The notes under the pieces are model-generated. The model was not told the DNA's origin and did no database searches. It was given only the letters and a program-made list of their open reading frames with translations. This document shows, one piece after another, positions 28,965 to 34,684 of a DNA stretch of 64,000 nucleotides (positions within the stretch are counted from its first letter, which is position 1; every line of letters starts with the position of its first letter). Both the position numbers and the translations under genes were made by a program. The DNA lies in contig CAWEHK010000021.1 of NCBI GenBank assembly GCA_963808625.1, forward strand, positions 64,001 through 128,000, read 5' to 3'. The stretch is from an uncultured delta proteobacterium (GTDB taxonomy: Bacteria; Desulfobacterota; Syntrophobacteria; Syntrophobacterales; Syntrophobacteraceae).

Positions 28965-29372
28965 TCACTGTGATCGCACTTCCAGCCTCAGCCCCTCGAT
29001 CTTCTCGAAATCGCGCCGGTTAGCCGTGATAACCGAATAGTCAAGGGAAATGGCCGTGGCTGCGATGATCAGGTCGTGGGCGCCGATGGTCAATCCCTTC
29101 TTTGCCAGGGAGGCCCAGATGCGTGCATAAATGCGCGCCACCGTGGTGTCGAAGGGAAAGATGGGGAATGACTCCAACACCTTTTCAACGAAGGACTGGC
29201 GCTTCAGCCGACGGGCCTCGGTATCGGCGCGTTCCACTCCATGCAGCAGTTCCGCAACGGTAACCACACTGATGCCGAATGGTTCATCCTCGCGACCAGA
29301 CACGAGGATTTGCACCTGTGCTCGGTTCCGTTCAAGGGAGATGATTTCGCTGGAATCAAAGATTACCCCCAT
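28965..29372 (-). CDS. vapC: VapC PIN-domain toxin
   Basis: DSS, SVVTVAEL..G, GAHDLIIAATA, TANRRDF. Confidence 0.93.
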   Translation of the reverse strand: MGVIFDSSEIISLERNRAQVQILVSGREDEPFGISVVTVAELLHGVERADTEARRLKRQSFVEKVLESFPIFPFDTTVARIYARIWASLAKKGLTIGAHDLIIAATAISLDYSVITANRRDFEKIEGLRLEVRSQ

Positions 29373-29644
29373 ACCGTATCCTCCGGCAGAGGGGGTTGGG
29401 CTTTGACTGCCCCAAGAACGTCATCGGCAAAGTTGATGTCATCGGGATCGAGCTTCGGTAAGGTCTGAAAAATGCCTTTCAAATCGCCCATATGTCGGGG
29501 AGAACCGGCTTCATCAACCGGGACAAGGGCCGCCGCCGGTTTTCCCCCGCGAATGATCGTATAGCGGTCCCCACGGTATTTGATGTTGTTCAACAGTTCG
29601 GAAAAATGTCTGACCGCCTCGGTAGCGCTTATGTCTGGTCGCAT
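29363..29644 (-). CDS. Phd/YefM-family antitoxin
   Basis: ISATEAVRHFSELL...IIRGGKPAAALVP; overlaps the vapC start. Confidence 0.9.
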   Translation of the reverse strand: MRPDISATEAVRHFSELLNNIKYRGDRYTIIRGGKPAAALVPVDEAGSPRHMGDLKGIFQTLPKLDPDDINFADDVLGAVKAQPPLPEDTVWG

Positions 29645-29733
29645 GGTTTCCTCCTCGTAAAATATTATTATCATATTTTACACAAACAATGCGTGACCGG
29701 CAAGAGGACTCTGCCCCAATCGGGATAAATCGA

Positions 29734-30444: not shown

Positions 30445-30807
30445 ATGGAGCAAAAGAGAAGGAGGAACATCCTGTTGCCGCGGCGCAGGAGGCAATGGTG
30501 CTGCGCGAGCGAGCACTTCCAGACCGTCGCTTTTCTTGCAAAGAGCCTATCGGATGAGAACCGGCTGCGGATCATCCTCTGCGTGAGCAACGGCAAGAAG
30601 TCCGTCTCGAGCATCGTTGAGGAACTCGGTCTTTCGCAGCCCCTGGTTTCCCATCACCTGAAGGAGCTCAAGCGATCGCTGCTGGTCAAGATCGAGCGCA
30701 ACGGCCCTTTCATCTATTACGAACTGGTTGATGCGAGAATCCTCGATGTCTTTCGGACATTGAGCACCGTGGCAACGGATTTGCTGACCGCAAGGAAAAC
30801 CTTTTGA
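30445..30807 (+). CDS. ArsR/SmtB-family metalloregulator (TsoR-like)
   Basis: AKSLSDENRLRII...LSQPLVSHHLKELK...ERNGPFIYY; N-terminal start uncertain. Confidence 0.92.
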   Translation: MEQKRRRNILLPRRRRQWCCASEHFQTVAFLAKSLSDENRLRIILCVSNGKKSVSSIVEELGLSQPLVSHHLKELKRSLLVKIERNGPFIYYELVDARILDVFRTLSTVATDLLTARKTF

Positions 30808-30832: not shown

Positions 30833-31282
30833 ATGGAAGAGATGCTGAAAATAGTTGGCCACATGGATCCGGAAGAAGCGCTCACCGAAATATCCCAAGT
30901 CCTGAAAGTGCTTTTCTCCGCTTTGGGTGAAGAGGCGCGTTCGCAATTCCTGTGGGACCTCATGGGAGAGTCCCGGGGCGACAAGGTGTCGAGCCTGGTC
31001 CATCTCTGACTGGCCGAATGCATGGGCGAAGGTGTCGACCCGACGCAAATGTGTCAGAGACTGGTGGATAAGGTTGCCCAATCCAAACAACTGATGGCGA
31101 TGACCGATCCGGATCTCCTGGTGCTGTTCGAAGACTGGTTTGAAGAACTGGAAGAGGAGATCATCTCGCTCGTCAGCGAGCATGGCCCTCTCAAAGCGGG
31201 AGAGCTTGCCGAAAAGACCGGGCTCTCCCTGCGGGGGGCAACCTTCCTCCTCTCAAAGCTCAAACGTGAGGGAAAATTGTAG
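30833..31282 (+). CDS. tsoA: LULAxC-motif selenoprotein (TsoA-like, 149 aa; Sec59, TGA 31007-31009) with C-terminal winged helix
   Basis: RBS GGAGGTGAT; MEEMLK...SSLVHL-U-LAECMGEG... reads in frame into ORF 31022..31282; SECIS-like hairpin; family name from memory. Confidence 0.8.
31024..31041 (+). promoter_or_regulatory. Putative SECIS hairpin of the tsoA-like gene
   Basis: GGGCGA / AGGTG / TCG-A-CCC; loop 20 nt after UGA. Confidence 0.55.
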
Positions 31283-31320: not shown

Positions 31321-33153
31321 ATGCAGAACAAGAGAACGACCTTCACAGCCCTTGTGGCGGTACTGCTTACGGTTGGGGCCCTCTGGCTTACCAATCGCGC
31401 CGTTACTCCCAAGCAGGCTGCATGGGACGATGTTTTGGCCGAAGCGACAGCCGGAGGCTACAAGATTATCACCACCGACGAGCTTTCCGAGCGCTATCAA
31501 AACGATGCCAAAAGCCTTCTCCTGGTGGACACTCGCCAGGAATGGGAGTATCGGACAGGGCATCTCCCGGGAGCGGTAAACTTTCCCATGGAGCCGACCT
31601 CATGGTCGAGATGGCGCAAGGCATCGGCACTCGAAACCTTCCTCGGGCCGGATAAGGATCGCACCATCATCTTCTACTGAGCGGGCCTCACCTGAGTCCG
31701 CAGCGACTCGGCGGCCCGTGTGGCCGTAAAGCTCGGTTATCAGAACGTCTACCGCGACCCTTATGGCTATCCTGAATGGCAGGGGAGAGGGTTGCCCGTT
31801 GCGAGCGCCCCGGCAGGCCTAGCCCAAACAAGCGAAGAGCCCAAGGCGCCGGGACCTCTTTACGGCTGGGCCATGATCTGGACCCTGTTGGGCATCTTCG
31901 CCGGTGGCATGGCCTTGAACCTCACCCCTTGCGTCTACCCCCTGATTCCTATTACCGTCTCCTACTTTGGCGGCCAGGCCACAAAGGGAGGAGAAGGCCA
32001 GGGAAAGCTCGTGGCGCACGGTCTGTGTTATATGATGGGCCTGGCGGTTGCCAATTCGGTCCTTGGAGTGGCAGCCTCTCTCACCGGCGGTCTCATGGGA
32101 GGAATGCTCCAGAATCCCATTGTCCTTATTCTGGTAGCGGCGGTTCTGGTCTTTTTTGCAGCGAGCCTCTTCGGGCTGTGGGAAGTCCGTCTTCCGAGCG
32201 GCCTTACGCAGGCTGCCGCAAAATCGTATACGGGCTACTTCGGAAGCCTCTTCATGGGGCTGACCCTCGGAGTGGTCGCAGCTCCCTGTATCGGTCCTTT
32301 CGTGTTGGGGCTCCTCACCTGGGTTGCCAGCATGGGAAGCCCATGGCTCGGGTTTGTGATCTTTTTTACCTTGAGTCTGGGCCTGGGACTGCCGCTCTTC
32401 CTCCTTGCCATGTTTTCGGGGCAACTGGAAAAACTCCCCCGCTCGGGAGGTTGGATGATCTGGGTGAGAAAGCTCATGGGCTGGGTCCTGGTCGCAATGG
32501 CCGTCCATTTTATGAGGCCGGTTCTTCCCGGTCACTGGGGAACCATTCTGCTTGCCCTTGTCGCCCTGGCTGCAGGGTTGCACCTGGGGTGGATCGACAA
32601 AAGCCAGGCCAACTTCCGTGCTTTCCCCTGGCTTAAGGGCGGAGCGGGGGTGGCATGCCTGGTTCTGGCCGCCTTCCTCCTCGCGTCATGGGCGATGCAA
32701 GGCCCCGGCGTCACCTGGAAGCCCTACTCGGAGGAGACTCTGAAAGAGGCCCAAAACTTGAGGAAGCCGGTCATCATCGATTTCTATGCCACCTGGTGCA
32801 CGCCATGCCGTGAGCTTGAGGAAGTCACGTTTCACGATGCCTCGGTCGTAAAGCTGGCCGAGAGCGACTTTATCATGGTCAAAGTGGATGTGACCAAAGG
32901 CGGTAACCCCGTGCACGAACGCTTGCTGCAGCAATACGAGGTGAAGGGGGTCCCGACCATAGTGTTCCTGGATAGCAGCGGCAAGGAAAAGCGGGATCTG
33001 CGCCTGGTGGATTTCCTCCCGGCCGATCAGTTCCTTGGCCGCATGGCAGAGCTCAAGAAAGGCGCGCAGCTAAAGAAAAGGAGAAGAAGCGATGCTGAAG
33101 GTGAGATTTTTCCTGAACGAGCCCGGCGGCAAGCCCTGAAGGCATTTCGCTGA
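31321..33153 (+). CDS. tsoB: Rhodanese-DsbD(beta)-thioredoxin fusion selenoprotein (TsoB-like) with two Sec (TGA 31678-31680 and 31693-31695)
   Basis: ORFs 31321..31680 and 31720..33153 share a frame, joined by IIFY-U-AGLT-U-VRSDSAA (rhodanese loop FYCxGxxCxRS). Then LTPCVYP and AAPCIGP (DsbD/CcdA transmembrane cysteines) and FYATWCTPC (Trx). The true stop may be TAA 33071-33073 after a terminal indel. Family name from memory. Confidence 0.88.
31681..31727 (+). promoter_or_regulatory. Two overlapping SECIS-like hairpins serving tandem UGA codons
   Basis: HP1: GCGGGCC(31681-87)/GGCCCGT(31713-19) plus CTGAGTC(31692-98)-CGCAGC-GACTCGG(31705-11); HP2: GCGGCC(31711-16)-CGTGT-GGCCGT(31722-27). Confidence 0.65.
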
Positions 33154-33430
33154 AATCATCCCCAGGCTGGGGAAAAAGTACCAGGTGGAAATCGAGACCA
33201 CATCCAAACCCAACCAGGAGTATCGTACCGAAGAATACGCCGGACTGGGGCTGCCGATGGCCCCGGCGATCATGGTCGGAGATGAGCTCATCGTGCAGGG
33301 CTGTGACGTGGATGAAGACAAGCTTGAGGCTGCCATCTGCCGGCATCTTGGGTTGCCTGAACCGGAACCGCGGAAGAAGGGGATCTTTGACAGGTTTCTC
33401 GGGAGGGGAATAAGCAAAGAGGGCAGGTGA
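33092..33430 (+). CDS. tsoC: NEPxGxxU-motif thioredoxin-like selenoprotein (TsoC-like, 112 aa; Sec16, TGA 33137-33139)
   Basis: RBS AAGGAG; MLKVRFFLNEPGGKP-U-RHFAEIIP... in frame with ORF 33185..33430 (APAIMVGDE cis-Pro-like loop); family name from memory. Confidence 0.82.
33159..33173 (+). promoter_or_regulatory. Putative SECIS hairpin of the tsoC-like gene
   Basis: TCCCC / AGGCT / GGGGA; loop 24 nt after UGA. Confidence 0.5.
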
Positions 33431-33506: not shown

Positions 33507-34684
33507 ATGGAAACTGTTCGTGCTCATGACGTGCATCACGCCCCATTACTGCGCCAGTTGTTCGGTTCTTTCCTGAGGATGGGGATCACTGCTTTCGGCG
33601 GTCCCGCCATGATCGCCTACATCAGGAAGATGGCCGTCGGCGAGAAGCAATGGCTTGACAGCGAATCCTTTCAGGACGGCGTGGCCCTGTGTCAGACGAT
33701 ACCAGGGGCGACTGCCATGCAGATGGCGGCTTATGTCGGGTTGAAAACGCGGGGTGTGCGCGGAGCGATCTCCTGTTACTCGGCTTTGGCCTTCCGGCGT
33801 TCCTTCTGATGCTGGGGCTGTCCTTTGCCTACTCTCAGACGCACGAGCTTCCGGCTGTCATTTCCGTTTTTAGCGGGCTTCAGGCTGTGATCGTAGCCGT
33901 CGTGGCCAACGCCACGTTGTCCTTCGGAAAGACCTCCGTCAAGAGCTGGAAGAGCGTGGTGATCGCCCTTGTTGCGGCAGGGCTTTTCTGGTTCATGGTA
34001 AACCCGGTGCTCATCATTTTTCTGGCCGCCCTCCTCGGAATGTTGCTGAACAGCAGGCAACCCGTCGCTCAGAGAGCTACGCATCCAACCCGCATGCGGC
34101 ACACAACCATCCCACTGCTGTTTTTTCTCTTCGCTTCCGCGGCGGGCCTTGCCCTGCTCTTTTTCTTTCGAAAGGAGCTCTTTCAGCTTGCCGTGCTCAT
34201 GTCCAAGATCGATCTCATCGCATTTGGCGGAGGGTTTGTCTCGGTGCCCCTCATGTTCCATGAAATCGTAGATGCCCGCTCCTGGATGGATGGTCCGACT
34301 TTTCTCAATGGGATCGTTCTCGGCCAGTTTACTCCCGGCCCCATTGTGATCACGGCAACTTTTGTGGGCTACCTGGTCTATGGCCTTCCCGGCGCCCTCG
34401 TTGCCACCGTGGCCATCTTTCTTCCGTCGTTTCTCATCCTGGTAGGCGTCGCCCCCTGGTTTGACCGGGTGCGCTCATCGCCATGGTTCACCAGGGCTAT
34501 CGACGGTATCCTTTGCTCCTTTGTGGGGCTCCTCTTGACCGTCACCATCCGCTTTGCTTTGAACGTCCACTGGGACTGGCCTCACCTGGCTCTCGCGGCG
34601 GCGGCCTTCGCCGCTCTGATTTTCAAGCTGGATATCCTCTGGGTAGTTCTTGGGGGAACCGCGATTTCGGCATTTGTCTTTTAG
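33507..34684 (+). CDS. chrA: Long-chain chromate ion transporter, CHR family (frameshift near 33780)
   Basis: FLRMGITAFGGP...CQTIPG and AFGGG...GQFTPGP two-domain CHR signature. Confidence 0.92.

Follow-up and report, generated by a model that had tools for sequence, protein, structure and literature searches.

How can a bacterium, whose SECIS elements act in frame and at short range, insert two selenocysteines (Sec) only a few codons apart? The question is raised by a reading frame in the 64,000-nt stretch of DNA analysed here (the window, to which all positions refer), in which two in-frame UGA codons, UGA1 and UGA2, precede two predicted hairpins. The first-pass annotation had described a rhodanese-DsbD-thioredoxin fusion in which the two hairpins, being mutually exclusive, form a sequential SECIS switch. 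Comparison with relatives suggests instead a single recoding signal, read twice with the aid of a collapsible hairpin. Taken in all its parts, namely a TsoB protein with a DsbD-like electron path, a rhodanese acting on sulfur or selenium and a SECIS that is read twice, our account has, in our estimate, an even chance of holding.

The tsoB gene and its operon

By profile search, the frame scores 1024.3 bits against the TsoB model NF045694 (cut-off 805) and spans model positions 2-571 of 572. Membership of this family is indicated by the full-length score above the cut-off, the UxxxxU motif with two Sec codons and the adjacent TsoA, TsoC and TsoR; the operon order is tsoR-tsoA-tsoB-tsoC, and all three adjacent neighbours exceed their curated cut-offs (Table 1). 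A table in a 2026 review (PMC13188914) lists TsoB as rhodanese form 5, with the motif UxxxxU and two Sec, and credits it to Haft & Tolstoy 2025 mSystems. The gene itself thus brings nothing new, since both the TsoB family and its operon are already curated. Its architecture, motif, two Sec and TsoR/TsoA/TsoC neighbours are those of the family, and the sole difference at the protein level is a 25-residue tail: the 3' end at 33153 results from a 1-nt insertion near 33065, and relatives terminate about 25 codons sooner. The insertion, located within 33060-33076, carries the frame beyond the TAA at 33071-33073 and produces a 62-nt overlap with tsoC; it is either an assembly error or a real mutation.

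Table 1. Positions of the operon genes, UGA codons and RNA elements in the window, with protein features of TsoB
Feature	Position	Strand	Description
tsoR	30445..30807	+	ArsR/SmtB-type regulator, operon head; NF045707 172.7 bits, cut-off 115
tsoA	30833..31282	+	LULAEC selenoprotein; NF045695 225.8 bits, cut-off 170
tsoA UGA	31007-31009	+
tsoA SECIS	~31023-31042	+	loop AGGUG
tsoB	31321..33153	+	NF045694, Pfam; 610-residue frame with UGAs read through
UGA1	31678-31680	+	in-frame TGA; U120, rhodanese catalytic position
Lower stem of long hairpin 1 (31681-31719)	31681-31687/31713-31719	+	in free RNA of this genome; not conserved
UGA2	31693-31695	+	in-frame TGA; U125
Hairpin 1, upper stem	31693-31710	+	GAGUC/GACUC, loop CGCAGC; buries UGA2; proposed collapsible spacer
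Hairpin 2	31711-31727	+	predicted SECIS; GCGGCC/GGCCGU, loop CGUGU
TsoB protein features			N-terminal signal/anchor helix; 8-helix DsbD-type membrane domain (C204, C323); thioredoxin C493-T-P-C496
tsoC	33092..33430	+	NEPGGKPU thioredoxin-like selenoprotein; NF045708 145.4 bits, cut-off 45
tsoC UGA	33137-33139	+
tsoC SECIS	~33159-33173	+	loop AGGCU

The named relatives nearest to TsoB (top 83-88% identical) are from Desulfobacterota and related deltaproteobacterial genomes; sequencing runs share at most 18% of words with the query, their matches being contigs of relatives only. Where related loci leave room, tsoR lies upstream of tsoB in 49 of 64, tsoA is present in 46 of 64 and tsoC follows in 62 of 70, and the TGA is retained at 74/75 tsoA and 87/87 tsoC sites found. 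Promoter prediction called none upstream. A ChrA-like chromate-transporter gene at 33507-34684, split by a missing base near 33779, stands 3' of tsoC in only 2 of 70 related loci and therefore lies outside the core operon. Across the 76 loci of relatives (L018-L093), genes that recur downstream of tsoC encode a VTT/TVP38 membrane protein (about 30 loci), fatty-acid-hydroxylase-family proteins (14), glycine-cleavage H-like proteins (9) and thioredoxin reductase (8). On the minus strand at 28965-29674, two small genes resemble, by eye, a PIN-domain toxin and a Phd-type antitoxin.

The stretch TAC TGA ... TGA GTC quoted in the first-pass annotation is present, with both TGAs in one frame in the rhodanese active-site loop. 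As the annotation had held, this is a single rhodanese(UxxxxU)-DsbD-thioredoxin gene: two TGAs 15 nt apart in one frame recur in 73 of 76 related loci, and the remaining three have a frameshift before the motif (L040) or reach contig ends (L048, L072). Two TGAs are also carried by 34 of the 35 matches with E < 1e-44 among 401 sampled genomes of the phylum, and matches further away are of the Cys-only or CxxxxU type (6 cases); UxxxxC variants, which could assign a hairpin to UGA1, were absent among the homologues compared. The annotation had also considered that homologues might divide into a gene stopping at 31678 and another starting at 31720. They keep one frame instead, and a separate start is unlikely, since codon 31720 has no ribosome-binding site and is a non-start codon in 15 of 147 homologues. 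The codon 5' of UGA1 (31675-31677) is TAC in 139 of 147 homologues and is among the most constrained two-fold sites, possibly through a 5' context effect.

This genome encodes SelA, SelD and a single copy of SelB. Its assembly, which is 84.6% complete, holds no tRNA-Sec, and a canonical tRNA-Sec is found in 23 of 27 other genomes carrying a double-UGA rhodanese. That SelC*/tRNA-ReC decodes one UGA or both as Cys, a caveat raised for UXXU proteins in the available text of PMC13582414, or that they are true stops, strikes us as extremely unlikely. Atypical long-arm tRNAs do occur in 5 of the 27 carrier genomes, three with a UCA and two with a GCA anticodon, but are missing from the other 22, and the prevalence of canonical tRNA-Sec and the lone SelB of this genome also speak against Cys; conservation of the frame through both codons excludes true stops. 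We are highly confident that the gene is TsoB, one reading frame through both UGAs, with Sec predicted at each. The five atypical tRNAs (L366-L368, L370, L371) are possibly SelC*/tRNA-ReC, a label that we infer.

Pairing downstream of the two UGA codons

Pairing was compared in 174 relatives filtered on the peptide motif, 169 of which have a folded hairpin 1, and changes were counted on a tree of 93 full-length genes built without the motif region (12 short, broken or stand-alone genes and 4 duplicates left out). A metagenome scan for divergent motifs returned 119 stretches, some by chance, with a pattern that preset part of the hairpin 2 5' arm and barred Ala after UGA1, a selection bias; of 80 pattern matches, 9 were left out (7 chance matches, 2 uninspected). 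Of the genes that it recovered, 38 form a monophyletic clade (the His clade), in which His replaces Asp and identity is 43-53%; the two members tested both score above the TsoB cut-off.

Hairpin 2, 15 nt past UGA2, folds as the first-pass annotation described (-9.5 kcal/mol, z -2.66, matched by 4 of 200 shuffles) and is conserved. Its loop opens with G[G/U] in all 174 relatives, loop base 31719 being only G or U, and 99.8% of its cells are paired. Two of its pairs vary on both sides: 31716/31722 changed four times on the tree, each time on both sides together, and 31713/31725 occurs as GC, AU, CG, UA and GU. Five synonymous sites in the hairpin change 4-9 times, fewer than all 119 four-fold background sites (median 29). 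Over the tandem structure, 99 distinct sequences contain 34 double-sided cells against 7.5 in shuffles (reached by 0 of 500), all of them within hairpin 2. Its position stays constant in the His clade while hairpin 1 shifts register. Judged from these compensatory changes and the G[G/U] loop, hairpin 2 is the predicted SECIS. Rfam returned no match, and a longer stem beneath hairpin 2 (31698-31704/31731-31736) was rejected as it does not covary, its variable pair being paired in 54 of 109 sequences against 56.5 expected.

The published bSECIS rule, as given in the available text of PMC13188914, combines a loop of 3-9 nt, a G in the first two loop bases, a spacing of 16-37 nt and an energy of at most -7.5 kcal/mol. 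With respect to UGA2, hairpin 2 agrees with it in loop size, G[G/U], spacing and energy, and its pairing is conserved. Its loop G lies at +26 from UGA2, inside the range of the other SECIS of this genome, all 11 of which have loops opening with G[G/U] at +21 to +31; these are the elements of tsoA, tsoC, SelD and the 8 of 20 scan candidates confirmed by family. The hairpin 2 loop is similar to those of tsoA and tsoC, and a G[G/U] loop stands at +24/+25 in 4 of 6 single-Sec CxxxxU genes. The hairpin 2 loop is also like those of nine further selenoprotein genes of the genome: two MvhD-like genes, FdhA, DsrE, DsbA, HesB, HdrA, DUF1573 and SelD. A first de novo selenoprotein scan was flooded by shadow frames, and the 12 remaining candidates of the 20 were rejected as matching no selenoprotein family. 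One of these, an acyl-CoA dehydrogenase gene (L327, G000:C35:77959), has an in-frame TGA and a loop other than G[G/U], representing either a nonsense mutation or unlisted recoding. A search with NF041115 (UxxU) in 301 genomes recovered mostly ordinary heavy-metal domains and was discarded.

The short form of hairpin 1 is likewise kept in relatives. Its upper stem, placed by the first-pass annotation 11 nt past UGA1, lies 12-13 nt past it in the conserved register; the burial of UGA2 in the stem stands. The substitution pattern indicates that this stem is under selection: its synonymous sites 31698 and 31707 changed three times and once, always to a wobble-compatible U, which is less than at every background site (119 four-fold, 59 two-fold). 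Hairpin 1 occurs in at least four pairing registers: +17/+32 in most relatives, +14/+31 and +11/+29 in the His clade, and +11/+26 in the stand-alone rhodanese L134. The loops are unrelated between registers (CGNAGY, GNRA, GAGUACG, GAGU and AAAG, with an A-rich one in L133), +14/+31 having mostly GNRA. In His subclade B, the re-registered stem coincides with the rare codons ACG, GTG and CAC, each fixed in at least 85% of 33 sequences, as happens at 6 of 277 background sites. The 27 Cys-only homologues are without hairpin 1 (-3.5 to 0 kcal/mol).

The switch proposed in the first-pass annotation depends on the lower stem, through which a long hairpin 1 (-22.2 kcal/mol, z -2.98, matched by 2 of 200 shuffles) would conceal hairpin 2, including its loop G, until the ribosome clears UGA1. 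For free RNA of this genome the exclusivity is real: the two structures share 31713-31719, with pair probabilities of 0.99 for long hairpin 1 and 0.01 for hairpin 2. Of three conformers, the long form also ranks first in 40 of the 109 main-clade homologues. Nevertheless, the lower stem displays neither selection nor covariation. Its share of paired cells is 81.0%, compared with 80.5% in shuffles (reached by 97 of 500), its synonymous site 31686 changed 28 times (background median 29) and 31683 changed 17 times (8 of 119 as low), and it is missing from all 45 His-clade sequences, being dominant in none. The ribosome footprint covers the bases directly after the A-site codon, so that a stem there is melted before decoding. 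As the lower stem begins at the first base past UGA1, the ribosome should enclose it and keep it open during decoding of UGA1. Since its pairing is no better than in shuffles and the ribosome would cover it, there is no support for a conserved switch, and we consider mutual exclusion very unlikely as the mechanism. Without the lower stem, the two short hairpins lie side by side and fold jointly (-16.4 kcal/mol). They dominate together in 96 of 109 main-clade sequences in 54-nt windows and in only 33 of 129 in 75-nt windows with +1..+12 blocked; in the 75-nt window of this genome, hairpin 1 falls to 0.0 because of a competing longer stem that does not covary.

One signal or two

We favour, at roughly even confidence, the reading that hairpin 2 serves both UGAs and that hairpin 1 loops out the spacer between them. 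Hairpin 2 would then be the only SelB-binding SECIS and would act at both codons. While UGA1 occupies the A site, hairpin 1 would fold just outside the ribosome and loop out 16-21 nt including UGA2. The distance left to hairpin 2 would be some 12-14 unpaired nt and the width of one helix, near the 15 nt that separate UGA2 from it. The advancing ribosome would melt hairpin 1, and UGA2 would then be decoded with the same SECIS. Among the 169 relatives with folded hairpin 1, the unpaired nucleotides from UGA1 to hairpin 2 number 8-16, and 12 or 14 in 154 (15 for UGA2). Some observations count against this reading: hairpin 1 has no double-sided change inside the main clade, and 2 of the 6 single-Sec CxxxxU genes fold strongly in the hairpin-1 region. 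Compared with synonymous shuffles one sequence at a time, hairpin 1 shows weak stability (median fraction 0.12), and the hairpin itself is weak in 5 of the 174 relatives.

A serious rival, which we rate as less likely, is that two compatible SECIS stand in tandem, UGA1 being served by the upper stem of hairpin 1 as an atypical SECIS and UGA2 by hairpin 2, with the order set simply by ribosome unwinding and no switch. The joint folding of the two hairpins, the selection on hairpin 1 and its place 12-13 nt after UGA1 agree with this, and the rival is kept alive by the window-dependent folding, by the G at +23 of hairpin 1 in the main clade, the position of the essential G of the E. coli fdhF SECIS (PMC8659212, available text), and by conformity to the loose bSECIS rule, limited to the loop G and the spacing, in this genome and 152 of 169 relatives. 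On the other hand, the remaining 17 fail even the loose rule with both UGAs kept, and the hairpin 1 loop has the G[G/U] pattern in only 28 of 169 folded cases and is without it in 141. In this genome, the loop CGCAGC departs from that pattern, and the energy of -6.3 kcal/mol falls short of the -7.5 limit in the available text of PMC13188914. The +23 G is itself a base of an Arg codon, which comes to lie as the second loop base, inside GNRA, as the last loop base or in a pair (L134), and it is missing in L133.

The third possibility, that hairpin 2 acts on both UGAs from afar, its loop 36 and 21 nt away, with no collapse, and that hairpin 1 pauses the ribosome at UGA1 or spaces ribosomes for SECIS refolding, appears improbable. 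A distance of 36 nt is within the published range of 16-37 nt, and a single SECIS has been proposed for the hydrogenase UXXU in the available text of PMC13582414. But the loop G would stand at +41 from UGA1, beyond the +21 to +31 of the 11 other SECIS of the genome, and the looped-out length is kept across hairpin 1 registers.

We therefore return to the reading in which hairpin 2 is used twice. With somewhat less than even confidence, we propose that tsoB contains a two-part recoding element, apparently undescribed, in which a SECIS read twice is combined with a collapsible spacer that bears UGA2 and equalises both distances, and that this spacer, conserved in length and not in sequence, has been remade in no fewer than four pairing registers. 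Relative to the bacterial SECIS consensus and fdhF, as represented in the available texts, the element would have an extra conserved hairpin, bearing UGA2, between UGA1 and the SECIS, in a register that varies by clade. A close parallel is offered by the UXXU group 4 [NiFeSe] hydrogenases, which likewise have two close UGAs; the available text of PMC13582414 (2026) suggests a single downstream SECIS, cautions about UGA-to-Cys tRNAs and leaves the mechanism open. There the UGAs are spaced by 9 nt, as opposed to 15 in tsoB, and that text contains no spacer hairpin. This suggestion for UXXU was the only result of a literature search for tandem or read-twice bacterial SECIS; the double-Sec mechanism is not addressed in the available parts of PMC2398784 and PMC13326102. 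If true, the read-twice arrangement would provide a design rule for multi-Sec proteins in bacteria, and a SECIS finder that folds nothing beyond the first hairpin past a UGA would choose the wrong element here. The covariation data name the exact bases for mutation, and the three models are separable in one reporter series.

Protein architecture and putative function

According to Pfam, TsoB consists of a rhodanese domain (52-154), a DsbD transmembrane domain (186-402) and a thioredoxin domain (465-572), which bears out the earlier claim that the rhodanese sits in place of the Ig-like alpha domain of DsbD. With DsbD of the E. coli type (NF001419, PF02683) it shares the two-Cys membrane domain and the C-terminal thioredoxin gamma domain; it differs in the di-Sec rhodanese and scores 248 bits, below the DsbD cut-off of 330. 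In the motif F-Y-U120-A-G-L-T-U125-V-R-S, U120 takes the place of the catalytic Cys in an alignment with rhodaneses of solved structure, and U125 falls in a two-residue loop insertion. Positions C/U120, C/U125, C204, C323, C493 and C496 are invariant among 34 aligned sequences. An AlphaFold model from 34 sequences (pLDDT 76) has an N-terminal helix, the rhodanese and about 8 membrane helices, with a C-terminal thioredoxin domain whose top fold match is DsbD-gamma (1uc7); its pTM of 0.51 leaves the relative placement of the domains unfixed. TsoB has an N-terminal signal/anchor helix, and relatives have signal or lipoprotein peptides. Given these peptides, a periplasmic location is probable for the rhodanese, as for the gamma domain, and fits the 8 membrane helices.

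By analogy with DsbD, a cytoplasmic thioredoxin, for which TsoC is a candidate, may pass electrons to the membrane pair C204/C323, which would pass them to the periplasmic WCTPC domain (C493/C496); this in turn would reduce an Se-Se or Se-S state of U120/U125 in the rhodanese. The surroundings of related genes indicate sulfur or selenium carrier chemistry: of the 27 loci with Cys-only homologues, 24 have the membrane protein MauE alongside, and His-clade genes follow ArsR in 23 of 29 and stand beside DsrE in 25 of 29, with tsoA in none of the 29. The most likely role of the rhodanese is to process sulfane sulfur or selenium species, with regulation of the ArsR type.

Cys-only CGFTKC and single-Sec CxxxxU rhodaneses have the extended active-site loop in common with TsoB. 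Unlike TsoB, they are stand-alone or multi-rhodanese proteins, the Cys forms lying beside MauE and not being fused to DsbD. Among the single-Sec CxxxxU rhodaneses (L124-L129), two are part of multi-rhodanese proteins. The His clade (L164-L243) has the arrangement ArsR-DsrE-tsoB without tsoA, and some of its members have lipoprotein signal peptides. Finally, the double-UGA rhodaneses L130-L134 are stand-alone, with no DsbD nearby, and L131 has three different rhodanese genes and MauE within 10 kb.
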